From Candidatus Gottesmanbacteria bacterium (GTDB lineage: Bacteria; Patescibacteriota; Microgenomatia; UBA10105; UBA927), in NCBI GenBank assembly GCA_016214885.1, contig JACRMP010000005.1:70725-134724 (forward strand): DNA of 64,000 nucleotides, written 5' to 3'. The position numbers were made by a program, and so were the translations under genes. The notes beneath the pieces were generated by a model, which saw only the letters and a list, made by a program, of their open reading frames with translations, had not been told where the DNA came from and made no database searches. Positions 3,428-60,432 of this stretch are shown here, in pieces; position 1 is the first letter of the stretch; every line of letters starts with the position of its first letter.

Positions 3428-4510
3428 ATGAACTCATTCCGAACGACTATTAAGACTGCTCTACGTATTACTTTTTTGTTTTTCGCCAACGTCCTCCTGA
3501 TAATAATCATCTTCGCTGGGGCGGAAGCTTTTACGCGCTTTCGCCTTCTTGGATACGAAAAAGCACTACAAACTATGGTAGCGCCGTCTCACCGGCTCAC
3601 TGCACTTGGTGCAGCTGATTGGGCAATCTCTGATCCGGATCTCAACTACCGCCTCAATCCCGCACGGAACGATGTCAACGAGTTCTCGATGCCGGCGCCG
3701 GAAATATCCATTCCAAAACCAAAAGGAGTTACCCGAATCATCATATTGGGCGATTCGTTGCCATACTTCGGGGATCCCACATTCGTTGAACTGCTTCAGG
3801 AATACTACCGGACAAACAACAAGGTGGAAATTTTTAGCGCTGCCACACCCGGATATACCACCTTTCAGGAAGTTATGTACTATAAAAAATATCTTGACAC
3901 ACTGGAACCCGATCTTATTCTTCTCAGTTATTGTTTAAATGATAATCACCGGTTTCTTCACCGGTTTGATGAAAACGAAAATATGCTTTGGACCGAAGAG
4001 GCTGAAAAAAGTCTTTCCGTACATAACCCTCTTGACGCGTTCATTGTCAAAAGCTATTTCCTATCATCCCTTAGGCTCGCTTTTATCGACAAACAGCGGC
4101 GGCCGGAATCTTCTCCGTATCCGTGGGAAACGGACTTAACGACACATGTGGCATGGAAAGATCATACGTGGAATGAATTCCACCGCCTGCTAAAAGAGCT
4201 TAACGACAGTGTAAAAATTCATAATGGCAAGCTCTTTGTGATAATTTTTCCATTGGAAGTGCAATTGAATCCGGAATTCACCGACAACAATTTTTACTAT
4301 GTTACGAAACCGCAGAAACGTGTTATGGCTTTTTGCCAAACACTCGGCCTTGCCTGCCTTGATCTATTTGATCCGTTCTTCTCACTTTCTCAGGGAGGAG
4401 CTGAGCTATACACGGATGGATTGCACTTTACGACAGCCGGCCATATGCTGGCAGCTTCAGAAATCAGCGCATTTCTTAATCGGCACTACTTTGCTGAAAC
4501 AAAGCAATAA
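3428..4510 (+). CDS. SGNH/GDSL-type hydrolase with N-terminal membrane anchor
   Basis: An N-terminal TM helix is present. Block I is IIILGDSLPYFGD, a GDS motif. The C-terminal DGLHFTTAGH carries the catalytic DxxH. Confidence 0.55.
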   Translation: MNSFRTTIKTALRITFLFFANVLLIIIIFAGAEAFTRFRLLGYEKALQTMVAPSHRLTALGAADWAISDPDLNYRLNPARNDVNEFSMPAPEISIPKPKGVTRIIILGDSLPYFGDPTFVELLQEYYRTNNKVEIFSAATPGYTTFQEVMYYKKYLDTLEPDLILLSYCLNDNHRFLHRFDENENMLWTEEAEKSLSVHNPLDAFIVKSYFLSSLRLAFIDKQRRPESSPYPWETDLTTHVAWKDHTWNEFHRLLKELNDSVKIHNGKLFVIIFPLEVQLNPEFTDNNFYYVTKPQKRVMAFCQTLGLACLDLFDPFFSLSQGGAELYTDGLHFTTAGHMLAASEISAFLNRHYFAETKQ

Positions 4511-4604: not shown

Positions 4605-5195
4605 TCACTCGCGTACCTGCGAAAGCTTTGTATATATTGGATCGATGGGGATACGTTTTGGATACCTAACAAGCCGGGGTAGATACTCACCCGCTCTAAA
4701 CGGCGCCATCTTCATCTTCCTCTTCATTCTGTTTTGGAACTCCTGCCAGAGCACATATTTAGCCCGTGTTAAATGCATGGTTCCCGTACAATAGTCACTT
4801 TCACACCGGCACCCATGAGTACACGGGTTACAGCTTTCATCCTTTGGGCTTAATAAATACGAAATAGTAAGCTCTTCTCCGGGAATAATGTCCCGTAATG
4901 CAAAAAATAACGTGTGCCCCCGATAGACATATATCCAGCAGTTAGGCATACAGGAATGATTGAATAAGTGTACGCCGGGCTTAGTCACATCAGGATACAG
5001 AAACGCATTGTCGGTAAACGACATGATATATAATTCATTGGGATTTGCAGTAGTTTCATAATCGACAATCGGAATAACTTTACCCAAGTAATCCCCGATG
5101 ACCATTCCTTTACGGATGGTTTTTACGGCAAACACCCCTCTCCCCTTTGCGCCGGCTCTGTGAATGGATATGTAATCGGGCTGAATCAGAAACAT
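4605..5195 (-). CDS. SET-domain protein (putative protein-lysine methyltransferase)
   Basis: GRGVFAVKTIRKGMVIGDY... then FNHSCMPNC (the NHSCxPN SET signature) and ELTISY, followed by a Cys-rich post-SET-like segment CNPCTHGCRCESDYC. Confidence 0.7.
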   Translation of the reverse strand: MFLIQPDYISIHRAGAKGRGVFAVKTIRKGMVIGDYLGKVIPIVDYETTANPNELYIMSFTDNAFLYPDVTKPGVHLFNHSCMPNCWIYVYRGHTLFFALRDIIPGEELTISYLLSPKDESCNPCTHGCRCESDYCTGTMHLTRAKYVLWQEFQNRMKRKMKMAPFRAGEYLPRLVRYPKRIPIDPIYTKLSQVRE

Positions 5196-5307
5196 AAAGG
5201 TGTAGTAACTGCGCCTTCAGGATACCACATATAATCCGCAAAGGATTTATACGACACTGTTTGTATGGTACCCTTGTTCTATAAGGAAAGGAGGTGAATA
5301 AACCAAA

Positions 5308-20611: not shown

Positions 20612-22090
20612 TTAAAAATAACCTGATTCAATAAGTGTTTTTCTATCCTGGTCATTGATCCAGGATGGCAACGGGTCTGATCGGGGTGCGATGTCAGGAA
20701 ATCCGCGCTGGAGCTCCCTATAAACACGTAATAATGCCCCCGTTATGACTTTATGCTCATCAGCGATGTTTATTTTTTCCGCTGGGTCACGCTTCAGATC
20801 ATATAGCATGACGGAAGTCTTCCCTTCCGCAATTCCACGGATAAACTTAAATCGGTCGGTTATCACAGCAACTGCACCGTCACTCACGTGCTCTGCAAGC
20901 ACGGCAATATGCCTTACCGGAGAAAACACGCTTATCCCGGAAATAGGAAACGTCGTGCGATTATCCAACACATCATGAATGGTCGGAAAAATATCCACAA
21001 GAGAAACTAGCCGTCCTGATCTCCCTGATCTGCTCTTGGGAACATATACAACAAACGGCACGTGAAGCACCTCATTATAAAGTGTGTTTCCGTGTGAATA
21101 TGAATCATGCTCAAAAAACTCATCCCCCTGGTCGCCCACAATAATAATTGTGGTGTTTTCCATAAAATTTTTCTCGGTGAGGTATGTAAAAAATTTTGTC
21201 AGCTCCTGATCAAGAATATACAGCTGGGCTGAATATAACGCATGTATATATTCCGATTTCTCCTGTTTACCTAAATGGTCAAATTGTTTCCAGTACTCTT
21301 CATTTATGATTGTGTATACATCGTTGTACTCTTCATATGTCTTGTTGCTCATTCCCTGGAATTCGGCTAATTTATCACAGGTATTTCTTGTGTCATTAGG
21401 GTGCCCGTCTCTTAATTCGGGCCGCAGGCTCATGAGCTTGGCATACGTCAGTGCACACAAATCGTCATACGTCATCCGCTTTCGGTCGGTACCCTTATAA
21501 AAACGGGAAAGTGTTTCCTCATCCGGCATATACGGTTCATGCGCCATATAGGTATGCATAAAGAAAAAAGATTTTTTCTTCAGTCTGTCAGGATCAAGCG
21601 CCAATGCATCCAATGTGGCTATCCACGAACCAGGATCATCCGCTTCATAAATTGAAGTAAATCCCCTTTCCATCCCGCGGTCGAGCGGCAAATGCGGATC
21701 TTTTGTAACCCCCAAATAATACGTTTGGTAACCCAAGCCCTTTAATGATTCTGCCAGGGTAGGTATTCCCTCAGGTAAAATACTTGAATACGGGAGATTC
21801 ATGGTGTGTGTCTCCGGGTACAGAGAGGTCATCATAGAAAAGTGACTATCGTGAGTACGCGATGCAGTCGCGTAGGCATTGGTATAGACATGTGATTTTT
21901 TCGCGAATGCACATAAGCCCGGCATGGTGTTCTTGCTATACCCAAAACAGGGAAGGCTTTTGGCGCGCACCTGATCGAGTGAAATCAGCATCACGTTACA
22001 GTCGCGACACATAGGAACTGATTGTCGAAAAGACACAGCAACCGCGGAAATTAGGAATAAAAGCACGATGGTTAGTGCATATCGCAACAT
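20612..22090 (-). CDS. Sulfatase-like hydrolase/transferase of the alkaline-phosphatase superfamily, membrane anchored, Thr nucleophile
   Basis: An N-terminal TM helix is followed by NVMLISLDQVRAKSLPCFGY...NAYATASRTHDSHFSMMTSLYP. The position equivalent to the sulfatase C-x-P-x-R motif reads T-H-D-S-H, so this is a Thr-type enzyme as in phospho-transferases such as LtaS/EptA rather than a true sulfatase. Confidence 0.6.
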   Translation of the reverse strand: MLRYALTIVLLFLISAVAVSFRQSVPMCRDCNVMLISLDQVRAKSLPCFGYSKNTMPGLCAFAKKSHVYTNAYATASRTHDSHFSMMTSLYPETHTMNLPYSSILPEGIPTLAESLKGLGYQTYYLGVTKDPHLPLDRGMERGFTSIYEADDPGSWIATLDALALDPDRLKKKSFFFMHTYMAHEPYMPDEETLSRFYKGTDRKRMTYDDLCALTYAKLMSLRPELRDGHPNDTRNTCDKLAEFQGMSNKTYEEYNDVYTIINEEYWKQFDHLGKQEKSEYIHALYSAQLYILDQELTKFFTYLTEKNFMENTTIIIVGDQGDEFFEHDSYSHGNTLYNEVLHVPFVVYVPKSRSGRSGRLVSLVDIFPTIHDVLDNRTTFPISGISVFSPVRHIAVLAEHVSDGAVAVITDRFKFIRGIAEGKTSVMLYDLKRDPAEKINIADEHKVITGALLRVYRELQRGFPDIAPRSDPLPSWINDQDRKTLIESGYF

Positions 22091-35675: not shown

Positions 35676-36699
35676 GATTATAAATAGGCGCAATGATGGC
35701 CATCATCATACCACCGACAACCACACCTACTAATACAAGAATAACAGGCTCAAGCAGCGTCATAAGATATTGAAGCGTGGTGGTGACCTGATAATCAAAA
35801 TACTCTGATAAATCCTCCATGGATTTATCCAAAGAGCCGCTCCGCTCCCCGACTTCTATGATTTTTATCATCAGTGACGGAATGGATTTTTGCCCCCGCA
35901 AGCCATCCGTTAACCGCTTGCCGCCGCCGACATATTCGCGTGCTTTTGCTATAGCCTCACGTATTTCCCGTTTCATAGCAACAGCTTGTGTTAATTCCAG
36001 CGCGCTATAGAGAGGAATGGCAGAAACCAGCAGCAGATACATGCTCCGCGAAAACCGTGTTAAATCTATCTGCCGGGCGATAGAAGACACATATGGCAGA
36101 TTAAGCAATATATTCACAACAAATGCGCGCTTCTGCTTGAAAAGGAAAATAATAAGAAGAATGAATCCGAAAACAACAAGCAGTGTCGGGACGGTGTAAT
36201 TTAATACCAAATTCGATAATCCTATAAGTATCCTGGTCGGCAGAGGCAGATCTACCCTAAGCCTAAGGAATACTTCCGAAATCTTCGGAATGACAAAGGT
36301 AACTAAAAGCAGCAACACCCCAAAAAATACGACGAGTATAACCGCCGGATACGTTAAAGCGGAACGGATCTTGTCACCGAATTCCATATCTTTTTTGATT
36401 GTATTTTTTACATCCTTAAGCACCACGTCTATCGTTCCTGATTCCTCCGAAGCCTTAATGATGGCGACCGTAACACTGTCAAACACTTTGGGATATTTTG
36501 ATAATGCGGTATGCAGCGGCTTTCCCTGGGTAATATCCGCTTCGATTCCTGTAAGCACTATTTTCAGATTTCCTACAGAATCCTCCAAAAGCGAGTTAAC
36601 CGCCTCTGCAAGGGTAAGCCCTGCATTTACCATCGTAGATAAATTACTGAGGAGCCCCAATTTTTCAGAATTCTGCAGTGTTATATTTTCTGATTTCAT
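35647..36699 (-). CDS. pilC: Type II secretion system F / PilC-family inner-membrane platform protein
   Basis: GspF-like repeat motifs, LSSLVNAGLTLAEAVNSLL and EVGERSGSLDKSMEDLSEYF, with three TM helices. Overlaps pilB by 4 nt. Confidence 0.8.
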   Translation of the reverse strand: MKSENITLQNSEKLGLLSNLSTMVNAGLTLAEAVNSLLEDSVGNLKIVLTGIEADITQGKPLHTALSKYPKVFDSVTVAIIKASEESGTIDVVLKDVKNTIKKDMEFGDKIRSALTYPAVILVVFFGVLLLLVTFVIPKISEVFLRLRVDLPLPTRILIGLSNLVLNYTVPTLLVVFGFILLIIFLFKQKRAFVVNILLNLPYVSSIARQIDLTRFSRSMYLLLVSAIPLYSALELTQAVAMKREIREAIAKAREYVGGGKRLTDGLRGQKSIPSLMIKIIEVGERSGSLDKSMEDLSEYFDYQVTTTLQYLMTLLEPVILVLVGVVVGGMMMAIIAPIYNLIGQVGEFH

Positions 36700-38372
36700 A
36701 GTGTTTCCACCCGCGTTACCCTGAGTATTTCCTCTATCGTCGTCACCCCTTTAGACACCTTAATCAGCCCGTCATCCAGCATGGTAAGCATCCCTTCGGT
36801 AATTGCCTGCTGGGCAATCACATCGCTGTCTTTCCGTTCGGTAATGAGTTTACGGATTTCTTTTGTTATCTCTAAGACCTCGAAAATACCTACCCGCCCC
36901 GCATAACCCGTAAACCGGCAGTTTTTACACCCCTGCCCTTTATAGACTCTGATTTCTTTGTTTACTCCCGTAGGGATGTAGTGCTTGCTTATGATGGTTG
37001 CCGGAAGATTTTTCTGTAACTCTGCTTCAGTAATAGTTGTTGATACGCGGCAATAATCACAAATTTTCCGTACCAGACGCTGCGCGACAATAAGACTCAC
37101 ACTGGATGCGACAAGGAACGGCTCTACATGCATGTCAGTAAGGCGTGGAAGCGAGGTGGCAGCATCATTTGTATGAAGCGTCGAGACGACTAAATGACCG
37201 GTAAGAGCGGCGTTGATGGCAATACCGGCGGTTTCGGGATCACGGATTTCTCCGACAAATATAATATTGGGATCCTGACGCAAAATAGAACGCAGCCCAT
37301 TGGCAAATGTTAAATTGGTTTTTGTATTCACCTGAATCTGATTAACCCCCTTAATCCTGTATTCCACAGGATCTTCAATGGTCGTAATGTTTTTATCCCG
37401 GACGTTTAAGATTTTCAGCATGGCGTAAATTGAAGTCGTCTTGCCGCTCCCGGTAGGACCAGTCGACAGAATCATGCCGTATGACCTGTGGAGTGCGGCG
37501 TTTATTTTATTTATCGCTGCTTCTTCCATGCCAAGGTCAGCAAAACTAAACAGCTTAAAATGGGAAACCAATAACCGCATGACCACCTTTTCCCCCTCCA
37601 CCATGGGAATAATGGAAATACGGATATCCACTGACTGCTCGTCATGTTTGATACGCACTTTACCGTCCTGGGGAGCCGAATGTTCATCCGTACGGAGGTT
37701 TGCCAGTACTTTGATACGGCTTACCACCTGGCTGTGCATTGTTTTAGAGAAGTTCAGCACGTCATGAAGAATTCCGTCGATCCGGAACCTCACTAATGAA
37801 TCTGCCTCCCCCGGCTCAATATGGATATCAGAAGCAGTCTCATCCACCGCGCTATGCAGCAATAAATCGACAATCGTAGAGATCGGCGCTTCATCCTCCC
37901 GTTTAAAACGCTTCATTAAATCGGCAAATACCGACTGCAGCTCGCGCCTATGGAGCTGTAATGCATTATGAATGTCGTGCTCGGTTGCATAATGGACAAT
38001 TATTTTCTGACGGATTTTTTTCTCAAGGGCGGCAAACACTGGAGTATCAGAAGGATTTGCTGCCGCAACTTTTAATCCTCCCTCGTCCCGTGCAAACGGG
38101 ATGATTTTATGCACTTTGGCGAACTTATCCGGAATTACCCGATATACTGATTCCGGAATAGTGACATCAGCCAAATTAACAAACGGCACGCCCAAATGTT
38201 CTGCGATAAGCTTTCCCAGATTGGTGTCGGTAATGACATTTTTTTCAAGCAGCGCATCAACGAGAGGGACCCCTGCACTCTTGGCAAACTCAACGACTGC
38301 TTTAAGCTCAGCTTCAGTCGCCACATGCGACTGGATCATCAGCTTCTGGAGGATTTCATCAGAAATATTCAT
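36696..38372 (-). CDS. pilB: Type IV pilus assembly ATPase PilB / GspE family
   Basis: N-terminal GspII_E domain. Walker A LSTGPTGSGKTTS, Asp box, Walker B, His box (TLHTNDA) and the tetracysteine CDYC...CKNC. Confidence 0.9.
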   Translation of the reverse strand: MNISDEILQKLMIQSHVATEAELKAVVEFAKSAGVPLVDALLEKNVITDTNLGKLIAEHLGVPFVNLADVTIPESVYRVIPDKFAKVHKIIPFARDEGGLKVAAANPSDTPVFAALEKKIRQKIIVHYATEHDIHNALQLHRRELQSVFADLMKRFKREDEAPISTIVDLLLHSAVDETASDIHIEPGEADSLVRFRIDGILHDVLNFSKTMHSQVVSRIKVLANLRTDEHSAPQDGKVRIKHDEQSVDIRISIIPMVEGEKVVMRLLVSHFKLFSFADLGMEEAAINKINAALHRSYGMILSTGPTGSGKTTSIYAMLKILNVRDKNITTIEDPVEYRIKGVNQIQVNTKTNLTFANGLRSILRQDPNIIFVGEIRDPETAGIAINAALTGHLVVSTLHTNDAATSLPRLTDMHVEPFLVASSVSLIVAQRLVRKICDYCRVSTTITEAELQKNLPATIISKHYIPTGVNKEIRVYKGQGCKNCRFTGYAGRVGIFEVLEITKEIRKLITERKDSDVIAQQAITEGMLTMLDDGLIKVSKGVTTIEEILRVTRVETL

Positions 38373-45940: not shown

Positions 45941-46120
45941 ATAGCCATCATTAGCTCGTTAATACCCGTATCGTACACACTGGGACACCCGGCGGGCAAT
46001 GCGTAAAATACATAGCCCGAGAAAATTGCAAAGCGGCAAACCTGCATTGACTTGCCCACACTCCATACCCATACTAAGAACAGGCACACACAGCACCTGG
46101 TTGTTTCTTTGTGCCGATGT

Positions 46121-47731
46121 ATGGTTTCTATGAAATCTTCAAAACGGAACGTTTCCCGCCGGGGCAAACACATATTCACCACAACACTCTTTATGGCAGG
46201 AGCCATCGTATTGCTTGTAACGGCTCTCTTATATGTTGCGGTGTGGAGCCGTAAACCGGCCTGTAAAAATTGCAATGTAATTTTGATTTCCTTAGACACT
46301 CTTTCGGGCAAGCACCTGCCGTGCTACGGTTACCCAAAAAATACTGCTCCGAACCTTTGTCGGATTGCTAAGGAAAACTCATATTTTTCAAAGGCCTATA
46401 CCCAAAGCCATTACACTCTGCCGAGCCATATATCCATGTTTACCGGTCAATATCCGTCAACGCACGGAATACTTGAGCCGGACACGCGGCTGCTCAGCAC
46501 AAAAACCTCCACCCTCACAGAAACGCTCGACGCCAAAGGGTATCAGACGCTGTATTTTGGCCCCACCGATAACGAGTTCCTTCCGTTGTCCCGCGGATTA
46601 GAACGCGGATTCGATTACATCGATGACGATTATAACTACTTAAGAACCGGAGAAATACAGAACTGGAAAAAGGGGGTACAAATGCTTAAGGACAATACAA
46701 ACAAAGGTATCCCGACATTTCTTTTTCTGCATACCTATTTTGTCCACGAACCATACCTACCTGACACACGGGATAATCATTTTACCGACAGTGTTGATCT
46801 GACCATACCGGTAACTCAACAGGAATACACCGCTCTTACTCCGGACTTTATCCAGTTTACGAAACGTTACTTCCGCCAAAGCCCGGCACAACACACACCG
46901 CAGGACGCCATATATCAAAAATATATGGAGACCGAAAATTTTAATCAAGCAAAAGCATTATATCAACAGCTCATGACGGATAATTGCAGGGTGTACTGCC
47001 TGCAGGCAGAATATTTTTATAATCAGAATAAAAACGATCCCCGCCACATCGCCTACATCCGCGCGCTGTATGATGAAATGATCCTGAATCTCGATAAAGA
47101 AATCGGACGTCTGGTCGCCGACCTTGAGCCGTACCTTAAAAAAAACACCATTCTGGTAATAACCTCCGATCACGGTGAGGCGTTTATGGAACACCAGGAT
47201 ATTATGCACCGGTCCCTCTATAGCGAAGTACTGAATGTTCCCCTTATTATCGCCGCTCCAAACATCAGCCGCGGGGAAATACGCACCCCTGCATCGATTA
47301 TAGACATATATCCTACTGTTCTCGGTCTGTTGGGGCTTCCGAAGGCGGCCTCGGCTGAAGGAAGCGATCTTTCTGCCGTACTTACCGGCTTACCGATGCC
47401 AATACGGTACAAACCGGTAATTTCTGAACGCTATGCTATGCGGTATGATAACGGCGAGCATAAGCCAATCCTGCAGCGATCCATTATTTCCGGCAAATGG
47501 AAATTGCTTATTACCATAGAACAACAATCAATACGCAATACTGAACTCTATAATCTGACAGTAGACCCCGATGAAAAAAACAATGTCGCTGTACAGCAAC
47601 AGGGAGTCGTAAACACCCTGCTTCGCATTCACACAGACTTCGCCAAACACCATCCTCAGAAACCCTATCCTTCACTACTTAAGCCGCCTGAGCCGCCACC
47701 GGAAGATCCTCAACGGTTATTCCATTATTAA
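46121..47731 (+). CDS. Sulfatase-like hydrolase/transferase, Thr nucleophile (paralog of 20612-22090)
   Basis: An N-terminal TM helix, then NVILISLDTLSGKHLPCYGY...AYTQSHYTLPSHISMFTGQYPSTHG, where T-L-P-S-H replaces C-x-P-x-R. Start ATG at 46121 chosen in-frame but uncertain. Confidence 0.6.
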   Translation: MVSMKSSKRNVSRRGKHIFTTTLFMAGAIVLLVTALLYVAVWSRKPACKNCNVILISLDTLSGKHLPCYGYPKNTAPNLCRIAKENSYFSKAYTQSHYTLPSHISMFTGQYPSTHGILEPDTRLLSTKTSTLTETLDAKGYQTLYFGPTDNEFLPLSRGLERGFDYIDDDYNYLRTGEIQNWKKGVQMLKDNTNKGIPTFLFLHTYFVHEPYLPDTRDNHFTDSVDLTIPVTQQEYTALTPDFIQFTKRYFRQSPAQHTPQDAIYQKYMETENFNQAKALYQQLMTDNCRVYCLQAEYFYNQNKNDPRHIAYIRALYDEMILNLDKEIGRLVADLEPYLKKNTILVITSDHGEAFMEHQDIMHRSLYSEVLNVPLIIAAPNISRGEIRTPASIIDIYPTVLGLLGLPKAASAEGSDLSAVLTGLPMPIRYKPVISERYAMRYDNGEHKPILQRSIISGKWKLLITIEQQSIRNTELYNLTVDPDEKNNVAVQQQGVVNTLLRIHTDFAKHHPQKPYPSLLKPPEPPPEDPQRLFHY

Positions 47732-47773: not shown

Positions 47774-49075
47774 ATGGCATTAAAATCCTGGAGAAATTAT
47801 ATGCGGCTACTTGCCATATTCTGTTTTTTGGCAGGTGTATATATCGGTCTGTATTATGTTGTTGTTGCCCCGTTCGTTAATCCTATCAGCATTTATAAAA
47901 CTCCCGCCATTCGGGATGCTGCGCGCATGAGCATAGGTTACACCCTTATTGCCCCTTACAATAACGCGTTAAACAGCGACCCACATAACAAAGGATATGT
48001 ATATTTACTCGATATGCTTGGCCGCGAAATACACCAATGGAAAACAGATAAACAGGTGCTATCGGCCAGGCTTACCCCCAACGGAAACCTGATTGCCGCT
48101 ATGGAGCCGTCAAAATATTCACAGCAATATCCGGGAGGAGGCAACACGGGGGATCTCCAGGAGCTTGACTGGAAAGGCAGTATTGTAAGGGAGTATAAGA
48201 ATGAGTCGCTCCATCATGACTTTTCTCTGTTACCCAACGGAAATATTGCGGTAGTAAGCTGGGAAAAACTACCCGCTGCAATAGCCCGGAATGTAAAAGG
48301 GGGTATTCCCGGAACCGAACTTAAGGGAGACATATGGTCTGACGCGATTCTGGAGTTAGACCCGGGCAATAACGTCGTGTGGACCTGGCACGCGCACGAA
48401 CATATGAATCCTAACCTCGATATTATCGATCCGGCTCTTCCGCGGACCGGATGGACATATATTAATGGCATCCGCTTTTTGCCGAAAAACCCTATCGACA
48501 ACGAAGAAGGTTATCTTCTCAGCATGCGCTCCATCAACACAGTGATGATAGTCCGTAAACGTGACGGAGAAATAATTTGGCGCTCACCGCGCAATCTCAC
48601 CAACACCCAGCACGATCCAAACCTGCTGCCGAACGGCAACATCCTGGTATTTGATAACGGGTTCACACGGCTTCCCAATCCTGTTCCCCTATATGGAAGC
48701 AGGGTGATAGAAATCGATCCAAAAACGGGAGCAATTGCATGGTCGTTTGACGGAGGACCGGGGGTAATGGACAAGCTTGCATTCTACGGCCCCCTGGTAG
48801 GAGGATCCCAGCCGCTTCCTAATGGCAACGTGCTGATAACTGACGGACCGAAGGGACACATCTTTGAAGTAACCCCGGATAAAAAAATAGTCTGGGATAT
48901 GGTAAGCCCCTATACAACAAAATCCAGCGGATCTTTTCCCATTAATTTTATTTTCAAAGCCCGCAGATATTCTCCGGATGAAATAACATTTCCGCTGGGA
49001 ACCGCAAAACCATTTGATACCCGTCTCTATAAGGCAGCCTCAATGCTTGCACCGCTGTATTTTACGAACCTCTAA
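47774..49075 (+). CDS. Arylsulfotransferase (ASST)-family beta-propeller protein, membrane anchored
   Basis: An N-terminal TM helix is followed by LLDMLGREIHQW, LPNGNIAVVSWE, LLPNGNILVFDNG and LPNGNVLITDG, the repeated blade motifs characteristic of ASST-like proteins. Confidence 0.5.
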   Translation: MALKSWRNYMRLLAIFCFLAGVYIGLYYVVVAPFVNPISIYKTPAIRDAARMSIGYTLIAPYNNALNSDPHNKGYVYLLDMLGREIHQWKTDKQVLSARLTPNGNLIAAMEPSKYSQQYPGGGNTGDLQELDWKGSIVREYKNESLHHDFSLLPNGNIAVVSWEKLPAAIARNVKGGIPGTELKGDIWSDAILELDPGNNVVWTWHAHEHMNPNLDIIDPALPRTGWTYINGIRFLPKNPIDNEEGYLLSMRSINTVMIVRKRDGEIIWRSPRNLTNTQHDPNLLPNGNILVFDNGFTRLPNPVPLYGSRVIEIDPKTGAIAWSFDGGPGVMDKLAFYGPLVGGSQPLPNGNVLITDGPKGHIFEVTPDKKIVWDMVSPYTTKSSGSFPINFIFKARRYSPDEITFPLGTAKPFDTRLYKAASMLAPLYFTNL

Positions 49076-49993: not shown

Positions 49994-49998
49994 ATGAG

Positions 49999-50081
49999 CG
50001 GAGGAGACAGGACTCGAACCTGCGAGGGATTGCTCCCGTACGCTTTCCAAGCGTATGCCGTAGCCGCTGGGCCACTCCTCC
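49999..50081 (-). tRNA. tRNA-Ser (anticodon GGA), type II with long variable arm
   Basis: Manual fold: acceptor GGAGGAG/CTCCTCC, anticodon stem TACGC/GCGTA, loop TTGGAAA, variable arm CGGGAGCAATCCCTCG, T-loop TTCGAGT, discriminator G. CCA is not encoded. Confidence 0.8.
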
Positions 50082-50135
50082 CGGTAAGCTCTGATTATAC
50101 CATTTTATGAGCTCACCCAATGCTATAATCAGCAC

Positions 50136-51035
50136 ATGACCGCAAGAAAAAAGGCGCTGGCGGCTTTACTTCTTGTATCAGTCCTTTGGGGGACTGCTGG
50201 AGTAACCGCAAAAATACTTATTCAGGAACTTGACCCCTTTGTGGTGCTGTTTTACCGTTTTGGATTTGCATCGCTCATCCTGCTTCCGTGGTTTATCAAA
50301 GCACACAAACCTACTCACATGTGGCGCACCCTTATTCCATTCAGCTTGTTAAGCATTGGTAATGCGATATTTTTTTATCTTGGGATTGTGCATACAACCG
50401 CCGTCGCCGCATCGGTGATAAATACCAGCACTCCGCTGTTGACTGCTTTTTTTTCACACGCGCTTATCAACGAACGGACATCGAAAGAAAAAATTACCGG
50501 CATCATCATCGGTTTATTCGGCACACTCATCATTATCCTTCTCCCCCTTTGGAAAGAGGGGAAAAGCATCGGCGGGGATTTTATAGGTAACTTATTCATC
50601 CTTCTCTCGGTCACCAACTGGACGCTATACCTTGTAGGGTCGCGGAAGTTTATCTCTCAGGAAAAATTTTCTCCGATCGTCATGACGGAAATTAATTTTC
50701 TTACCCTTACCTGTGTCAGCCTGATCCTCGCACTTATTACAGGGCAGTCGTTTTTCACCAGCGCGTTTTACAATCCTTCATATGTACTGCTTCTTATTTA
50801 TGCCACGATACCCGTCACGGTTATCACCTTTGGATTATTTCAGTGGGTGATCAAACATATTTCCGCAACCACCGCATCCCTAAAAGATTATGTACAGCTC
50901 ACCGTCGGCATGGGATTATCTTTGCTAATACTCGGTGAGACAATAAACACCCCATTTATTATCGGAAGCGCCATTGTCATTATTGGCGTCGGCATCAGCA
51001 CGGGGAAAGCTATTTGGCGAACTCTTCGTGGATAG
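50136..51035 (+). CDS. DMT-superfamily (EamA-type) transporter
   Basis: Ten TM helices. The N-terminus LLLVSVLWGTAGVTAKILIQ is the EamA domain pattern, duplicated. Confidence 0.75.
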   Translation: MTARKKALAALLLVSVLWGTAGVTAKILIQELDPFVVLFYRFGFASLILLPWFIKAHKPTHMWRTLIPFSLLSIGNAIFFYLGIVHTTAVAASVINTSTPLLTAFFSHALINERTSKEKITGIIIGLFGTLIIILLPLWKEGKSIGGDFIGNLFILLSVTNWTLYLVGSRKFISQEKFSPIVMTEINFLTLTCVSLILALITGQSFFTSAFYNPSYVLLLIYATIPVTVITFGLFQWVIKHISATTASLKDYVQLTVGMGLSLLILGETINTPFIIGSAIVIIGVGISTGKAIWRTLRG

Positions 51036-51559
51036 CATCGCGGATATCCTTCCACCAGTCCTGCGAATCGGTGTTAGTGAGCGCCGTCATAAGCGCGACG
51101 GACTCCGGAAGCCGCACGCGGAGTGAATTTGCATCCATCCATTCTTTGGCATGCGAATTGCCTTTTTCCAAAAGAATTCTGCATTCCACACCGAACGCAA
51201 TCACATTGGCTTCATAGACAATCTGTGCCTCCAGCGTTTGTTTCGCTTCATACTCATTCAGTAACGCAAGCAGCTCGTCATCAATATTTTTAAAAATATC
51301 CTCATTGGCTTTATCCTCATGGCGGGTCATATAGCGCTTGGCCATTTTATCCATCTCACCCGTTCTGAGAAACATGACGGTCAGCACCCGCGGTAGTGTT
51401 GATTTCCTTTGCGAGAAAATATGCAATCACGGCTGTCATAAACGAATGTTCGCCTACATCCTCCTGATTATCACCCAGGCGCTGCCATCCCGTCCGCAGC
51501 ATGCGCTTCACATTCGCAGCTTCGTAAATAAGATTGGTAAGTCTTTTTTGATCATTCAT
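51010..51559 (-). pseudogene. HD-domain phosphohydrolase (YfbR-like 5'-deoxynucleotidase family) split by a frameshift
   Basis: The N-terminal piece (51356-51559) is MNDQKRL...VKRMLRTGWQRLG...DVGEHSF, the HD motif region. The C-terminal piece (51010-51426) continues in another frame with RHEDKANE...LPESVALM. The two frames overlap by about 70 nt. Confidence 0.5.
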
Positions 51560-51579
51560 AACTGTATTATAACCCTATG

Positions 51580-51651
51580 TACTCTCGGCGGGAGTCGAAC
51601 CCACATCACAGCCTTCGGAGGGCCGCATTCTATCCATTGAACTACGAGAGC
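51580..51651 (-). tRNA. tRNA-Arg (anticodon CCG)
   Basis: Manual fold: acceptor GCTCTCG/CGAGAGT with a 1-72 G-U pair, D-arm GTTCAATGGATAGAAT, anticodon stem CGGCC/GGCTG, loop CTCCGAA, T-arm GTGGG-TTCGACT-CCCGC. Confidence 0.7.
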
Positions 51652-51844
51652 CTCTAGGACAAAACCTTCGGTTTTTTCCTAACGATTTTCCCTAATAGGT
51701 GTCGCGAAGGGTTCGATAAATCCAATCCACACCTTCGCGACGAATTTAACCCTGAGCCTCAGGGGCTACTCTATCATCCTACAACGGTTATTCGCTTAGC
51801 GTATTATACCGCCGTTTCCATGGCTCTGCTAGAATGGAGTGAAT

Positions 51845-53929
51845 ATGATGAAAAGAAGGGTGCAGGTGGTTTGTATCATATTGGCAGCATATATAGCTCT
51901 CGTCCTGTACGCAAACCGTGCGCTTTTATCCTCCCGCTTTGACAAAGCTTACTGGCAAGACAGGTATGAGCAATCACAATGGAGACTCCCCCTCTCAGAC
52001 CGTGTTATCGGAGATGACGGACTATATCTGTATGAAGGGTATCGCCTGATCCGCGGCGGTGATCCAACGATTTCCAACGCCGAGATGCCGCCGCTTGGCA
52101 AATACCTCATCGGTACAAGCATCGTCCTTTTCGGCAACGGACATATTTATGGACTCATCATCACACTGCTCCTGCTATTGACCACGTATATTCTGGCAAA
52201 AAAAATACTGAAAGAAACATTCCTTGCCCTCGCTGCGGCCATGCTTCTTGCTACAGATCCGCTCATTACCAACCAATACACCCTCACCATGATGGACGCA
52301 CTTCAGGCACTACTGCTGGTAATATACCTCGCCCTGCTTGCTAGGATAGAAAACGGCAGGCGACATGTCTTTTATATTCTAGTAAGCGGTTTGACGCTTG
52401 GCTTATTCTCCGGCACGAAGCTTCCTGTTCTTACCCCGCTATTGGGAATTGCCGGCATATGGCACCTATTCACCCAATCCAAAAAAACGCAGGATATCAT
52501 TCTTTTCCTCATAGGCGTCGCCGCCGGATATCTGTTGCCGTACACAGTATATTTTTTTCAGGGTCATACGGTTATGGATTGGCTCAAAATCCAAAAATGG
52601 ATCGTGATGTTTTACCGACAGGGGAATATTTCTCCTACGTGGGGCAGCAGTATTACCACACTACTCACCGGCTACTATCAAAACTTGTTTTCCCATGCAT
52701 GGGAACGCGCGGCTGAATGGAGCCCTGTTTGGGGATTACTGACACTCGCCACGCCCGCTGCCATAGTGGCATGGATAAAAACAAAGAAAAAAGAAACCCT
52801 TTCCCTTCTTATTCCCAGCATTGCGCTTATTATCATCGGCATCTATGCCATAATTCCGTTTTGGACACGCTACCTCGTAGTCATACTACCCCTCCTCTAT
52901 ATCGCTGGCATAGCAACCCTTAGCCGCATCCCTTCAAAAATATTTTCAGCAACGGTAGCCATACTGGCTATCATAAACATGACCGCCTCACTACCCGTGC
53001 TTTTTCCGTCGGCAACCCCATCCATCAACCAGTTTATCTATAACACCAGCCACCGGCAGTTTGCTGATTTATATGAAGACCTCACCCGTGATGCAAAAAA
53101 CAATTGGTCACGGAATGAATTCAGATCAATGGGTCTTGCCGCAATGGCAGATGCGGAAATAGAACACATTGAGATTACGCCAACCGCAGTTACCCCTTAT
53201 GGTTATCTAACCTCTCCCCAATATCTTTCTGCTGAGGCAACCTTTTATACAAGACGCCTCGGCATATTTACCCACACCATCACTATCCCTTTTGTACGGG
53301 AAGATAACAGATGGCGCATCCCCTGGAAATGGGATCTTCTTATTCCTGGGCTTACTGCAAACACACGCCTCGAAACGACTGTCCAGGATGCAAAACGGGG
53401 AGCAATTCTGGGGAGTGATAAAAAACCCCTCGCTGAAGATGCTATGGGTGTTGCGCTCTGGATTACCCCGCAATCAATAGACCCTTCCCGGGAGAATGAG
53501 CTTCTCTCACTTATAGAAACGGTGTTTGACGGACGGATCCCCAAGGTGGCCATCCACCAGCGAATGGTCGGTAATATTCTGCCAAATACGCCGGTGATAA
53601 TCGGCACCATTCCGCACCCGGCGACTGATCCTAACGTTGTGGCTCTTGCGGCGTTCCCGGGAGTAACATTGCTACCAGCCTTCACCCGGCTTACCTATCC
53701 TAACCATGTCGTAGACATAGGAACACTCACCAACACCAGCTACTCAGAATGCTGCACTTACCTCTACACAACCACAACCTATGACGGGGTTAGCGGCACG
53801 GAAAAAATAAAAAACAATCAGCTTAAGGGAATTAATGGCGGTACGCTTGTGATTAAGGATGCGGAAGGGAAAATCGTGAAAACACTTATAAGTGTCACTA
53901 AAAAAGACGGTGAAAACGTGCAGCCCTAA
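51845..53929 (+). CDS. GT-C fold membrane glycosyltransferase (ArnT/PMT-like) with large C-terminal soluble domain
   Basis: DDGLYLYEGYRLIRGG and MPPLGKYLIGTSIVLFG resemble the ArnT acidic loop and KPPL motifs. About 12 TM helices and a ~280-aa C-terminal domain. Start set at an ATG with a GGAG RBS. Confidence 0.5.
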   Translation: MMKRRVQVVCIILAAYIALVLYANRALLSSRFDKAYWQDRYEQSQWRLPLSDRVIGDDGLYLYEGYRLIRGGDPTISNAEMPPLGKYLIGTSIVLFGNGHIYGLIITLLLLLTTYILAKKILKETFLALAAAMLLATDPLITNQYTLTMMDALQALLLVIYLALLARIENGRRHVFYILVSGLTLGLFSGTKLPVLTPLLGIAGIWHLFTQSKKTQDIILFLIGVAAGYLLPYTVYFFQGHTVMDWLKIQKWIVMFYRQGNISPTWGSSITTLLTGYYQNLFSHAWERAAEWSPVWGLLTLATPAAIVAWIKTKKKETLSLLIPSIALIIIGIYAIIPFWTRYLVVILPLLYIAGIATLSRIPSKIFSATVAILAIINMTASLPVLFPSATPSINQFIYNTSHRQFADLYEDLTRDAKNNWSRNEFRSMGLAAMADAEIEHIEITPTAVTPYGYLTSPQYLSAEATFYTRRLGIFTHTITIPFVREDNRWRIPWKWDLLIPGLTANTRLETTVQDAKRGAILGSDKKPLAEDAMGVALWITPQSIDPSRENELLSLIETVFDGRIPKVAIHQRMVGNILPNTPVIIGTIPHPATDPNVVALAAFPGVTLLPAFTRLTYPNHVVDIGTLTNTSYSECCTYLYTTTTYDGVSGTEKIKNNQLKGINGGTLVIKDAEGKIVKTLISVTKKDGENVQP

Positions 53930-54342
53930 GCGTCGATAAGCGACAGGTCGCCGTTTATCACGGTAGGTTGGATCGCGTGCATTTCCGTCATATAATCCAT
54001 ATCGGGCACAGGATAGAGAAGATACACCTTCTTATCAAGTCCGAATGCATACCCCATCTCCAAAAAGGTATTACCGCCTATATATCCCGGAATACCTTTT
54101 TTCTCATAGTTTAATATAAGGATTGCATCGGAAGCTTCGATTTTCTTGAAGTGCTCACGGATGAAATTATATTCAATTTTTGCCGTTATCCGCTCTTCAT
54201 CACTTTCCATATATGATTCATTTTTGTGGACATCATCGAGCTCTCCGGGAACAAACACGGTGAATCCCCGCGACAGCAACTGGTCTCGCACGCTGGCCAT
54301 TTCCTTATGAAACTGCATGGAACCGCAAATCGTAATTATCAT
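53926..54342 (-). CDS. Nucleoside 2-deoxyribosyltransferase-like superfamily protein (DUF4406-like), paralog A
   Basis: MIITICGSMQF, comparable to the Rcl/DNPH1 YFCGSIRGG N-terminus. Also FIREHFKKIEASDAILILN and KGIPGYIGGNTFLEMGYAFGL. Confidence 0.45.
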   Translation of the reverse strand: MIITICGSMQFHKEMASVRDQLLSRGFTVFVPGELDDVHKNESYMESDEERITAKIEYNFIREHFKKIEASDAILILNYEKKGIPGYIGGNTFLEMGYAFGLDKKVYLLYPVPDMDYMTEMHAIQPTVINGDLSLIDA

Positions 54343-54434
54343 AATTAATTACCTAATTACAAGGGAGTTGTCCCCGTCCTTATTCATCTACCAGCCAATT
54401 ATACTCCACGAAGCCGTTCCGGTATGCCTTTGCG

Positions 54435-55424
54435 TCACAAACTCATATACCGGCGCTGCAAAAATGCCTTAAGCTGCCTTACTGGCAGTATCATTTTAAT
54501 ATATTTTTTAATTCGTTCCGCTTCTGTTAAGCCATCGCCATACGCAGTATTGTCGTGTATTCCTGCGTTATGAAATGCCTTCATTCTCGTCGAGCAGGGA
54601 GGACACGTACCGCAGTGCAGACGCTCCCCCTTATAACACGTCCACGTTTTTTCTAACGGCAAACGGTGCGCTGTACCGATTCGCACCAGTTCGTCTTTAT
54701 CAAAGAAGTATCCCAACTCCTTCTCCATAGGAAGTGAGGTGAATTGCCAGGAAAAATCATCATCCATACAACACAAATTAAGCATTATTGCCCGGAGCGA
54801 CTGGAAAGACTCGTATCCATACCACTCTGAATTGGATGGTAACCATGCACCCACAATTGTCCTTACGTTAACCCCGTTCACCTCTTCAAGATACTTTGCA
54901 TAATACACGCCGTAATTTGCATAAAAAGATGGCTGAAGCGGAACTCCTTTGCGGTTTTGGTACTTAATGACATCATTTTCTTTTCGAAGAATAACATCTT
55001 TGACCTCGGCGGGAGGAACGGTAAATTTCATTTCAAAAATATCATGGAACTGCCCCGGATACTGACGGCGGAAATACGCGGAAAAAAATGCGAGCGATTT
55101 TTTGATTCTTTTTTCATGCGGAAGCATTCGGTTAATAAATAACGGATATACTTGCAGCCCATATTCTTTAAGAAGAATCGAGGCGACTACGGTTGTATCG
55201 AGCCCTCCCGACATCAACACAATAACCGGGCTTCTTTTTTTGGGCATGTTGAATACATATCCTCTTTTATGGATTAGTATTTTTTCGATCCTGTTAATAA
55301 CAGCCCTATCATTAATACGGTTGGCGGCTATCCGTTTATTTATTGCGCTATGATCTAACTTATGTGCTTTTTCCATAATCTTTAGAAACACTTCTGAATA
55401 ATTGCTCGTACTCCGAGGCAGCAC
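54435..55424 (-). CDS. QueC-like PP-loop ATPase (7-cyano-7-deazaguanine synthase family), extended variant
   Basis: VIVLMSGGLDTTV is the SGGxDS PP-loop. The C-terminus TWTCYKGERLHCGTCPPCSTR matches the QueC zinc motif TCY.G...CG.C..C..R. It is about 50-100 aa longer than canonical QueC. Start codon is uncertain. Confidence 0.55.
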   Translation of the reverse strand: MLPRSTSNYSEVFLKIMEKAHKLDHSAINKRIAANRINDRAVINRIEKILIHKRGYVFNMPKKRSPVIVLMSGGLDTTVVASILLKEYGLQVYPLFINRMLPHEKRIKKSLAFFSAYFRRQYPGQFHDIFEMKFTVPPAEVKDVILRKENDVIKYQNRKGVPLQPSFYANYGVYYAKYLEEVNGVNVRTIVGAWLPSNSEWYGYESFQSLRAIMLNLCCMDDDFSWQFTSLPMEKELGYFFDKDELVRIGTAHRLPLEKTWTCYKGERLHCGTCPPCSTRMKAFHNAGIHDNTAYGDGLTEAERIKKYIKMILPVRQLKAFLQRRYMSL

Positions 55425-56865
55425 TCTCCCATGTGTTCCGGTAATTCATACAATTTCTTATCAGCCGATACCTATCCTCGCGCATGCGATATACACTGAG
55501 CGCTCTCATTATTGCACGGTAAAGCGCCCGATCATCCCTCTGCATATAAGAAAATCCGTTTCCGCGACCAGTAACCAGTGAATAATCAACGATCATGTCG
55601 TTAAGACCCCCTGTTCTGCGCACAATAGGGATACAGCCATACCGCATGGCCTCTAGCACAACAATGCCGCCCGGCTCATAATTACTCGGCACTACAATCA
55701 TATCGGAGCCGGCAAAAACCATTCTCGGCATATGTATATCGTGCACAAGCTTAATACCCGTTTGACGGGGAAATTCCTTTCTTAAACGCCAAAATAATTC
55801 ACAATAATAATCTTCTCCATCGCCAATGCCTATTACCTGCAGCAAGGGTGTTTCTCGTAATATCCTTCTCATCGCCATGAAGAAAAATTCCAACCCTTTT
55901 TGTGAAGACATCCTTCCCACGTAACCCAACAACGGAGCGTCGCCGTGATCCGGCAATGAAAATATATTGCGTAATATTTTTTTGTTTTTTGCTCTATTCT
56001 TAATAACATTGATATCTGAATACCGGAACCCGATGTGTGTATCCGACTGAGGATCAAAATCACGGTAATCCAGGCCGTTTAGTATGCCGCTTAATTTGGG
56101 CCGTATCTTTGTTATCACCCTTCCCAGGTTATACGAGAATTCATAGTCATCCGATGCTATTTCTTTAGCATGAGTCGGGCTCACCGTATTCACTGCGTCG
56201 GCAAACACCATCCCCCTGGATAACGAGTTCTGTCTGCTTAATTCAGGCGATTCTAATGGAGCAAGAGGCGACTTCCCCATATCCAATTCAGCATCATCCA
56301 TATACTGAAATTTAATCTCATTTTGATACTTAAAATTGTGCACGGTGTATACAACAGGTATATATTTCAATGTCGTATAGCGCTTTACCCTTTTTAATAA
56401 CTCAACAAAATATCCGGTATGCCAATCATGACACTGTATTACATCGGGTAACCAGCCGCCGGCGCGCTTATGGAAGAGCAATAACTCAGCACACGTACGC
56501 GAAAACGTATAATATCTTTTATAATCATCCGCATATCCGTAAACCTGTGACCGCAAACCGAAATAATCCGGAATATCGATAAAATACATATACTCGTTTA
56601 CTGGACTTCTCTTCAGTATTTTGATGTGCAGCCACGATCCATGATTCATACCCGTATTCTTTCCGGTTATCCTCAGATTTTTTTCTTCCGAGTAAGTTTT
56701 TTTGTTTTCTTTTACGTAGTCAACTACGCTTTTGTGCAGAGGTGTTGCTATACGCACATCATGACCCTTCACCGACAATGCTTTTGCCAGTGCATATGTT
56801 CCCCTTGCCAAACCACCCACATGACTAAAGGGAGCTACCTCCGCAACCAGTATTAATACATTCAT
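55360..56865 (-). CDS. glgA: Glycogen/starch-synthase-like glycosyltransferase (GT5, GlgA-like)
   Basis: MNVLILVAEVAPFSHVGGLARGTYALAKAL is the classic GlgA N-terminus, corresponding to KxGGL. LLGYVGRMSSQKGLEF is the C-terminal GT-B motif. Confidence 0.65.
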   Translation of the reverse strand: MNVLILVAEVAPFSHVGGLARGTYALAKALSVKGHDVRIATPLHKSVVDYVKENKKTYSEEKNLRITGKNTGMNHGSWLHIKILKRSPVNEYMYFIDIPDYFGLRSQVYGYADDYKRYYTFSRTCAELLLFHKRAGGWLPDVIQCHDWHTGYFVELLKRVKRYTTLKYIPVVYTVHNFKYQNEIKFQYMDDAELDMGKSPLAPLESPELSRQNSLSRGMVFADAVNTVSPTHAKEIASDDYEFSYNLGRVITKIRPKLSGILNGLDYRDFDPQSDTHIGFRYSDINVIKNRAKNKKILRNIFSLPDHGDAPLLGYVGRMSSQKGLEFFFMAMRRILRETPLLQVIGIGDGEDYYCELFWRLRKEFPRQTGIKLVHDIHMPRMVFAGSDMIVVPSNYEPGGIVVLEAMRYGCIPIVRRTGGLNDMIVDYSLVTGRGNGFSYMQRDDRALYRAIMRALSVYRMREDRYRLIRNCMNYRNTWESAASEYEQLFRSVSKDYGKST

Positions 56866-56879
56866 GTTTTCTTTCTTGT

Positions 56880-58208: not shown

Positions 58209-58215
58209 AGTAGTT

Positions 58216-59034
58216 TTATATTTTCTGTATGATCCCCAAACCGGACTCTTTAGGAAAGGGAAATATAATTGCGTGCTTTTTGTCAATTTCCTTCCAAAGC
58301 CTCCATACACCAAATAATCCCTTATCTAAATATCCACGGGCAACCACATCGTGGAATGATATAAAACCACCACGATCCAATTTCGGCCAAAAAAGCCGCC
58401 AATCATCTTTTACTCCTCTGTACGAATGATCGCCATCAATATAGATATATTGATACCGTTTCTTCGGAAATTTTTTTGCGTATACCGCACTCCGCATAAC
58501 GTGGGTGGTTATATAGTGTTGAACGCCTATTCGGGAAAAATGTTTTTTGATATTTTCTTTTTTCCAGAATCCAATTCCGCTCCAGTGTTTTGATGGCTCA
58601 TCCTGACCGTATCCCGCATCAACAAAGTCTATGTGTCCTTTTCTATTGTCTTTGCAGGCACGGGCGAGTGTTGCAGGAATATATCCTTTTCTGGATCCAA
58701 TTACCAAAATATTTTCAGGTTTCAAATTCCTTACGAACGCATAATGAATAAGTCCAAATCCCAAAAAAAACTGGGTATGGTTTACCTGATGCCCGTCATC
58801 CCCGTTATATAATTCAATAAGCGCACGGCTCATTGACCGTTTCATGAGTGATTGCTGATAGGAGGGGTATAACAGTCCGGAATTGATTAACAATTCTTTA
58901 AGCTCAATAATCTGTAGCCTGATTATCCAAAAAAATTTTCTTAATCCAAACCACTTTACCGCATCCAAATAACGCATCAGAACATTATTATTCATGAAGT
59001 TCGATTCGGTGGACAGGCAAATTTCCGCTGCCAT
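58216..59034 (-). CDS. Class I SAM-dependent methyltransferase (Methyltransf_24 / CmcI-like)
   Basis: ILVIGSRKGYIPATLA, IDFVDAG and YIYIDGDHSY. Confidence 0.5.
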   Translation of the reverse strand: MAAEICLSTESNFMNNNVLMRYLDAVKWFGLRKFFWIIRLQIIELKELLINSGLLYPSYQQSLMKRSMSRALIELYNGDDGHQVNHTQFFLGFGLIHYAFVRNLKPENILVIGSRKGYIPATLARACKDNRKGHIDFVDAGYGQDEPSKHWSGIGFWKKENIKKHFSRIGVQHYITTHVMRSAVYAKKFPKKRYQYIYIDGDHSYRGVKDDWRLFWPKLDRGGFISFHDVVARGYLDKGLFGVWRLWKEIDKKHAIIFPFPKESGLGIIQKI

Positions 59035-59069
59035 ACAACAACCGCATCACCCAGCTAAAGTAATAACAG

Positions 59070-59157
59070 CGGAGAGGGTGGGACTCGAACCCACAAATCC
59101 CCTGACGGAGATAACAGTTTTCGAGACTGTCCGGATAGCCATTCCCTGCACCTCTCC
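59070..59157 (-). tRNA. tRNA-Ser (anticodon CGA), type II
   Basis: Acceptor GGAGAGG/CCTCTCC, anticodon stem ACAGT/ACTGT, loop CTCGAAA, long variable arm, T-loop TTCGAGT, discriminator G. Confidence 0.8.
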
Positions 59158-59204
59158 ACAAATACACCCCGTATTATACTTCAATTGCAGCGTCGACGGG
59201 AAAA

Positions 59205-59618: not shown

Positions 59619-59624
59619 ATCGAG

Positions 59625-59696: not shown

Positions 59697-59736
59697 AAAT
59701 ACCTTCCGTATTGTACACCAAAAGCAAAGGGGTGCG

Positions 59737-60426: not shown

Positions 60427-60432
60427 CTTGAG

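Follow-up and report, generated by a model that had tools for sequence, protein, structure and literature searches.

A predicted SET-domain protein-lysine methyltransferase of Microgenomates bacteria with a conserved basic tail

The SET gene and the motifs of its product

The subject of this analysis is a SET-domain gene in a 64,000-nucleotide stretch of DNA (the window) from a Candidatus Gottesmanbacteria bacterium (GenBank assembly GCA_016214885.1, contig JACRMP010000005.1, positions 70,725 to 134,724 of the forward strand). According to the list of open reading frames (ORFs), the gene starts with ATG, codes for 196 amino acids and is the sole minus-strand gene flanked by two plus-strand genes, as an earlier note on this DNA had observed. 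Conservation figures were taken from an alignment of 60 short-form relatives (those of about 194 residues, described below), in which M1 and F2 are invariant and L3 is at least 90% conserved, and this backs the assigned start. A 100% identical protein is held at NCBI as “SET domain-containing protein-lysine N-methyltransferase” of a Candidatus Gottesmanbacteria bacterium. We regard the product as an intact S-adenosylmethionine (AdoMet)-dependent SET/post-SET lysine methyltransferase, predicted from its motifs to be catalytically competent. Coordinates of all features are collected in Table 1.

Table 1. Features of the SET gene, its surroundings and related loci. Positions are those of the window unless another locus is named.
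Feature	Position	Strand	Basis or remark
SET-domain protein-lysine methyltransferase (predicted), complete coding sequence, 196 amino acids plus stop	4605..5195	-	ORF list
SET domain proper, residues 18-113	4857..5144	-	Pfam PF00856; best Foldseek matches are MLL1/MLL2 SET
AdoMet-binding GxG (predicted), G18-R19-G20	5136..5144	-	G18 and G20 invariant; aligns to MLL1 HGRGLF
YxG motif of the SET N-terminal lobe, D35-Y36-L37-G38	5082..5093	-	D35, Y36 and G38 invariant; aligns to MLL1 EYAGNVI
NHSCxPN motif, N79-H80-S81-C82-M-P-N-C86	4938..4961	-	Aligns to MLL1 NHSCEPNC
ELxxxY with predicted catalytic Tyr, E108-L-T-I-S-Y113	4857..4874	-	E108, I111 and Y113 invariant; aligns to MLL1 ELTYDY
Extended Cys/His cluster, residues 122-141	4773..4832	-	C122-x2-C125-x-H127, post-SET motif, H141
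Canonical post-SET CxCx4C zinc motif (zinc predicted), C129-R-C131-E-S-D-Y-C136	4788..4811	-	Aligns to MLL1 CNCGAKKC
Basic C-terminal extension, residues 142-196	4608..4772	-	Predicted helix at about 144-160, then the conserved segment G169-x2-L172-P-x-L175-x2-Y178-P179
Divergent intergenic region, 112 bp, shared with the YtxH/DUF948-like gene; presumed SET promoter region	5196..5307		Sequence
GDSL-like hydrolase	3428-4510	+	Neighbour, convergent with the SET gene
YtxH/DUF948-like protein, 95 amino acids	5308-5595	+	Neighbour, divergent from the SET gene
GH77-HAD fusion, 680 amino acids	7106-9148	-	Side observation
Protein with spermidine-synthase-like domain, 698 amino acids	10537-12633	-	Side observation
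Protein with spermidine-synthase-like domain, 476 amino acids	13493-14923	-	Side observation
Two sulfatase-family proteins and an arylsulfotransferase (ASST) homolog	20612-22090; 46052-47731; 47774-49075	-; +; +	Side observation
Type II/IV secretion-family ATPase	36696-38372		T2SSE/MshEN domains
tRNA-rich stretch, 12 kb	49998-61261		Side observation
tRNA genes singled out within it	60341-60426; 59624-59696	-; -	Side observation
ATP-grasp/Acetyltransf_6/SET rows	L010 586-4747; L011 589-4738; also L093-L117		Patescibacteria lineage

The translation contains FNHSCMPNC (residues 78-86), ELTISY (108-113) and CNPCTHGCRCESDYC (122-136). A search with the Pfam SET model PF00856, proposed as a check in the earlier note, gave 63.5 bits (E=2.8e-17; cutoff 22.4) over residues 18-113 of the protein and positions 1-104 of the 105 in the profile. 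When the PDB was searched with phmmer, the SET domains of MLL2/KMT2B and MLL1/KMT2A were the best matches (E=1.6e-11 to 1e-10), followed by NSD2/3, SMYD3, SETD2, ASH1L and Clr4; a profile built from the family matched MLL1 at E=3.6e-18, with the catalytic and post-SET motifs aligned one-to-one. The motif match is not a chance pattern.

Within NHSCxPN, residues N79, C82, P84 and C86 are invariant among the 60 relatives, and H80, S81 and N85 are at least 90% conserved. The post-SET cysteines C129, C131 and C136 are invariant in short and long forms alike, and the regular expression C.C.{4}C matched 139 of 139 short-form proteins; with the invariant C82, which would supply the fourth ligand, they are predicted to bind zinc. 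The window protein has every invariant column of the alignment. The earlier note had described a near-canonical SET/post-SET architecture with an intact NHSCxPN motif and Cys cluster, to be abandoned if the GxG and the catalytic Tyr were missing; both are present and invariant in the 60 relatives, and the description stands. Every sequence and fold feature of the SET superfamily that was checked was found in the protein, and methyltransferase activity is predicted on that basis.

Structure models

The AlphaFold2 (AF2) model of the window protein has a mean predicted local distance difference test score (pLDDT) of 70.7 and a predicted template modelling score (pTM) of 0.69, with low confidence at residues 41-80 and 111-140. 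When this model was searched with Foldseek, the best PDB matches were again the SET domains of MLL2 and MLL1 (E=5.5e-7). A long-form relative, which aligns to the full 196 residues at 48% identity with two gaps, was modelled at pLDDT 94.3 and pTM 0.91, and its model superposes on the MLL1 SET domain with a root-mean-square deviation (rmsd) of 2.7 A over 144 columns (target TM score 0.72). Both models show the SET beta-fold with its pseudoknot.

A SET family of the Microgenomates

Homologs were sought among approximately 5.8 billion proteins. Among the relatives listed, 119 are 55-81% identical to the query and cover 90-100% of it, and 109 of 120 are 190-199 amino acids long, typically about 194; more than 500 further homologous clusters of much the same length were found. 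The named sources of the listed relatives are Curtissbacteria, Daviesbacteria, Roizmanbacteria and “Patescibacteria group” bacteria, and a complete Woesebacteria genome also holds a member (57% identity). All named sources fall within the Microgenomates, a branch of the candidate phyla radiation (CPR). The window protein has the features by which we define a Microgenomates 194-residue SET family in this analysis, namely its length, the M-F-L start, C-x2-C-x-H, H141 and the basic tail with L175 and Y178-P179. At least four independent assemblies carry the identical gene in an identical setting, so that it is not a contaminant absent from close relatives, a possibility raised in the earlier note.

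An exhaustive profile search of 1.84 billion cluster representatives returned 94 at E<=1e-30, which fall into two groups by length, about 194 and about 245 amino acids. In the same search the window family scored above 100 bits, and other SET proteins formed a continuum below 100 bits. The long form (for example P0121, P0279 and P0353, the last from Levyibacteria) shares the extended Cys/His cluster and the tail with the window protein, and differs from it in carrying a further C-terminal alpha/beta domain, about 50 residues long and composed of one helix and three strands. This domain, at about residues 200-245, was modelled with pLDDT 96-98, and R213 and G220 in it are invariant; no match to it was found in Pfam and no counterpart in the SET structures of the PDB. 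No remnant of it lies downstream of the window gene.

Small SET proteins are not uncommon among prokaryotes. A generic scan for NHSCxPNC, with one genome per species, gave at least 587 confirmed SET matches spanning Acidobacteriota, Verrucomicrobiota, Gemmatimonadota, Burkholderiales, Methanosarcinales, Nanoarchaeota and others, with three family members among the matches listed; 8949 cluster representatives match the family profile at E<=0.001. The statement in the earlier note that SET proteins are sporadic in bacteria is at odds with these counts. In the collection of papers searched, none links SET domains with CPR or Patescibacteria. A generic annotation as SET methyltransferase is already public; the CPR-specific subfamily is undescribed.

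The basic tail and four additional Cys/His residues

Besides its sister form of about 245 residues, two elements set the family apart from other SET proteins. All 60 short forms have C122, C125, H127 and H141, and each of these residues is kept in at least 90% of the long forms; neither generic bacterial SETs nor the subfamily found at loci L010 and L011 have them. In SETs of Burkholderia, Gemmatimonas and Acidobacteria, the ELxxxY region is followed directly by YxCxCGxxxCxGxM, without the extra Cys and His residues. The four residues may form a second, putative Cys2His2 metal site.

The other element is the tail. Residues 141-196 have an isoelectric point (pI) of 10.8, with 14 Lys or Arg against 4 Asp or Glu, compared with a pI of 6.2 for the catalytic core, and Y147, W150, L175 and Y178 are invariant in the 60 relatives. 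The corresponding region of the 48%-identical long-form model has pLDDT 94-97, so that the tail probably has a defined packing against the core. In the Foldseek search it had no counterpart in PDB SET structures: alignments of low rmsd end at about 150 columns, and only Set2 complexes go further, aligning over 193-195 columns with an rmsd of 11.8-14.5 A. The basic tail, the four extra invariant Cys/His residues and the 245-residue sister form are new features of the family.

A sister subfamily, at 40-43% identity to the window protein, shares its tail, adds a C-terminal domain of 55 amino acids and is without C-x2-C-x-H. Its genes stand in rows of three, comprising a double ATP-grasp ligase of 822 amino acids (LAL plus Ddl/RimK-like), an Acetyltransf_6/FemAB-like protein of 310 amino acids and a long-form SET protein of 245 amino acids, and the genes are separated by 4-40 bp or overlap. 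In a metagenome scan seeded with the GNAT-like protein, the ATP-grasp gene adjoins the GNAT-like gene in 27 of the 31 loci returned, a nearly constant pairing. The row may be a module for peptide ligation and methylation. At loci without the SET gene, an ECF-type sigma factor gene lies further downstream. Locus L010 is labelled Gammaproteobacteria yet is syntenic with Patescibacteria contigs, and may be mis-binned.

Descent of the gene

The SET gene is best explained as vertically inherited, strongly constrained and native to the Microgenomates, and it stands alone in the chromosome. Its G+C content (GC) of 0.445 and its GC at third codon positions (GC3) of 0.482 lie inside the range of its neighbours; the window has a GC of 0.457, and the level is 0.44-0.46 throughout the region. 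Relatives whose SET proteins are 57-76% identical have the same neighbours within a few kb, namely a LapA-domain/NUDIX pair, YggT, a GlsB-type transglycosylase-associated protein, the GDSL hydrolase and an OmdA-like gene, and the identities of these neighbours track that of the SET protein (NUDIX 76-80%, LapA 51-83%, GDSL 41-82%). Even at 57-61% SET identity, synteny is retained in part. Compared with a 76%-identical ortholog, the ratio of nonsynonymous to synonymous substitutions (dN/dS) is 0.13 at a dS of approximately 1.2; for more distant pairs, synonymous sites are saturated while protein identity stays near 60%.

In one phmmer search, 80 prokaryotic SETs from named genomes outscored human MLL1 and MLL2, which ranked last at 45-46 bits, the top 40 prokaryotic SETs listed scoring 56.5-246 bits; the nearest outgroups are therefore prokaryotic. 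A native origin is in line with the literature, in which bacterial SET genes are not seen as mere imports from eukaryotes (Alvarez-Venegas 2014, PMC3980110, citing Alvarez-Venegas et al. 2007 and Aravind et al. 2011).

Comparison with known SET systems

The closest described relatives are the small stand-alone prokaryotic SETs of the BtSET (Burkholderia thailandensis) and Go1-SET type. These proteins of about 150-170 amino acids also consist of one SET domain without a pre-SET, and they share NHSCxPN, ELxxxY and CxCx4C-G-x-M; they are 30-35% identical to the window protein over residues 9-140 and outscore eukaryotic SETs. They end at about residues 140-170, however, and are without the basic tail (141-196) and C122/C125/H127/H141 of the window family.

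Of the solved structures, the KMT2/MLL SET domains match best (24-29% identity; E=1e-11 to 4e-18), and their post-SET arrangement is identical. KMT2/MLL proteins are large and multidomain, and their SET domain is activated by WDR5-RbBP5-ASH2L. The N-terminal flank, the Win motif, the WRAD partners and the accessory domains have no counterpart in the window protein, whose SET fold begins at about residue 7 of 196, so that there is no N-terminal flank. Two positions before the catalytic Tyr, MLL1 has the Tyr of its Phe/Tyr switch, whereas the window protein has Ile111. The likeness to MLL is one of fold and chemistry and not of subfamily membership, because the N-terminal flank and accessory architecture are missing and prokaryotic SETs score higher.

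The secreted nucleomodulins (Chlamydia NUE/cpnSET, Legionella RomA/LegAS4 and Bacillus BaSET) are likewise bacterial SET lysine methyltransferases. They are secreted through type III or type IV secretion systems, carry nuclear localization signals (NLS) or ankyrin modules and come from pathogens of eukaryotes; the window protein has neither a leader nor such modules and stands outside this group.

Surroundings of the gene and other features of the window

The stop codon of the SET gene lies 94 bp from the convergent neighbouring gene, and the SET gene is monocistronic. The DNA of the window is ordinary chromosome, with genes for DnaG primase, BipA/TypA, glycogen synthase, seven tRNAs and transfer-messenger RNA (tmRNA). 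No mobile-element genes flank the SET gene.

Several genes elsewhere in the window are of interest in their own right. A fusion protein joins a 4-alpha-glucanotransferase (GH77, MalQ-like) to a C-terminal HAD-type hydrolase domain, and the position of its gene is kept in contigs of identical strains. Two proteins each have a spermidine-synthase-like domain in the middle or at the C-terminus; a metallophosphoesterase gene lies between their genes, and Pfam gave nothing at E<=1e-5 for their N-terminal halves. The sulfatase-family proteins and the ASST homolog are present despite the expectation of a metabolically minimal genome. The tRNA-rich stretch contains five tRNA-Ser genes (GGA, CGA, ACT, TGA and GCT) and two tRNA-Arg genes (CCG and GCG). 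One type-II tRNA-Ser, which occurs beside a normal GCU isoacceptor, reads TT-ACT-AA in its anticodon loop, giving an ACU anticodon with A34; an A34 ACU anticodon is unusual in a bacterial Ser tRNA. The tRNA-Arg usual for the CGY Arg codons of bacteria is of the ACG (inosine) type. In the window, these codons are served by the GCG tRNA-Arg and not by one of the ACG type.

Target and cellular role

The explanation we favour, and consider probable with some reserve, is that of a native, vertically inherited SET methyltransferase with an endogenous target. AdoMet would bind at G18-x-G20, N79-H80 and Y113, the post-SET zinc held by C82, C129, C131 and C136 would close the lysine channel, and Y113 with Y36 would position the amine of the substrate lysine for methyl transfer. 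The basic tail, with its possible second Cys2His2 metal site, would pack on the core as a surface for docking substrate. The enzyme would work in the bacterial cytoplasm, and its substrate would be an endogenous, conserved protein, most plausibly one associated with nucleic acid (a nucleoid, ribosomal or translation protein). An endogenous cytoplasmic target is suggested because the protein is conserved across presumably differing hosts, has no export signal and joins a basic tail to an acidic core; we hold this part of the explanation, a cytoplasmic enzyme acting on a conserved and possibly DNA- or RNA-bound protein, to be almost as likely as not. For such targets there are precedents, as cpnSET of C. 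pneumoniae methylates Hc1, a histone-like protein of its own cell, and Go1-SET of M. mazei methylates the endogenous chromatin protein MC1-alpha (PMC3980110).

Several observations weigh against this explanation. The confidence of the AF2 model of the window protein is only moderate. For expression, a consensus scan of positions 5196-5307 found no sigma-70-like site, a result that is uninformative for CPR bacteria, and no clear Shine-Dalgarno sequence could be read ahead of the well-supported SET ATG; a perfect one, AAGGAGGTG, precedes the divergent YtxH-like gene on the far side of the 112-bp gap. No conserved co-oriented partner was found in nine short- and long-form contexts, which show local synteny only. 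The idea of a nucleoid or ribosomal target is drawn only from tail charge and analogy. CPR bacteria are commonly episymbionts, and a host-directed role without a classical signal peptide is possible.

The earlier note had named no target, and gene neighbourhoods, which point to no functional partner, were rejected as a guide to one. Small genes upstream of the SET gene at loci L006 and L007 bear no relation to the YtxH-like gene of the window. An origin in defence systems or phages was likewise rejected. PADLOC matched neither the window protein nor the long-form P0121, PHROGs had no match for the window protein, and P0121 matched only a PHROGs family of unknown function, weakly (19 bits, E=0.0018).

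Among the alternatives, recent horizontal transfer (the earlier note had suggested horizontal acquisition), with a eukaryote or some unrelated bacterium as donor, could account for a gene that is alone on its strand without an operon partner and whose best solved structural matches are eukaryotic MLL proteins, yet the PDB holds few prokaryotic SETs. The GC and GC3 values that cannot be told from those of the neighbours, the synteny and proportional divergence across lineages, the spread of the family over Microgenomates orders, the dN/dS of 0.13, the prokaryotic SETs that outscore MLL1 and MLL2 and the lack of flanking mobile-element genes are evidence against horizontal acquisition, at least against any recent event; this alternative is largely refuted, and we give it hardly any credence. 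That the protein might be catalytically dead, a pseudoenzyme or a binding module built on the SET fold, is also very improbable. Its activity is predicted only, and two segments of its own AF2 model are of low confidence, but all AdoMet-binding and catalytic residues are invariant under strong purifying selection, and the high-confidence model of a relative matches active MLL1 at 2.7 A. The arrangement of the sister subfamily, directly downstream of the ATP-grasp/Acetyltransf_6 pair, raises the idea of a tailoring enzyme that methylates a small peptide or metabolite in an ATP-grasp/GNAT peptide-ligase pathway. The SET gene follows the pair in 11 of the 20 metagenomic loci with enough downstream DNA, but the pair occurs without it in the other nine, so the link is facultative; tblastn found no homolog of either partner in the window, and the four closer long forms and all short forms examined are unlinked to the pair. 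As we also know of no SET enzyme that acts on small molecules, a tailoring role is quite improbable, and the operon was rejected as an explanation for the window gene.

The least unlikely of the alternatives is an effector, delivered from an episymbiotic CPR cell to methylate proteins of a bacterial, archaeal or eukaryotic host. CPR bacteria are typically attached to hosts, the window encodes a secretion-family ATPase, and the basic tail resembles NLS-like or DNA-binding tails. Most characterised bacterial SETs are effectors (PMC3980110), and Chlamydia NUE, Legionella RomA/LegAS4, Burkholderia BtSET and Bacillus BaSET are precedents that act on histones. On the other side, the check for a signal peptide or secretion motif suggested in the earlier note found no signal peptide, leader or other N-terminal extension, M1-F2-L3 running directly into the first SET strand, although non-classical signals are possible, and no secretion genes are linked to the SET gene in the nine contexts examined. 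The NCBIfam model T4SS_AnkI (AnkI/LegAS4) scored 17.4 bits against a cutoff of 550, and an effector of the Legionella type was rejected; with no leader and this score, the suggestion in the earlier note that host histones are methylated finds no support. We know of no histones in the hosts of Microgenomates. Effector genes usually evolve fast and are patchily distributed, whereas this family retains 55-81% identity across several candidate orders with a dN/dS of 0.13. We consider an effector role unlikely.

Significance

We propose, tentatively and with more doubt than confidence, that the ultra-small Microgenomates maintain, by strong purifying selection, a dedicated SET methyltransferase, equipped with a lineage-specific basic docking tail and a second metal site, that methylates an endogenous nucleoid or ribosomal protein. 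Genomes this small retain few non-essential enzymes, and the family keeps 55-60% identity across candidate orders; an important conserved substrate is therefore implied. If the proposal is true, a native bacterial protein-methylation mark, comparable to that of archaeal Go1-SET on MC1-alpha, would operate in genomes of approximately 1 Mb that are shorn of most regulators. The chemistry holds nothing unexpected and the immediate value is modest. The first reading of the gene is nonetheless corrected, from an isolated, acquired histone methylase to a representative of a large, vertically inherited and uncharacterised SET family of the CPR. Very few endogenous targets of prokaryotic SETs have been listed; naming this substrate would add to them and would help to judge whether SET-mediated protein methylation arose before the eukaryotes.

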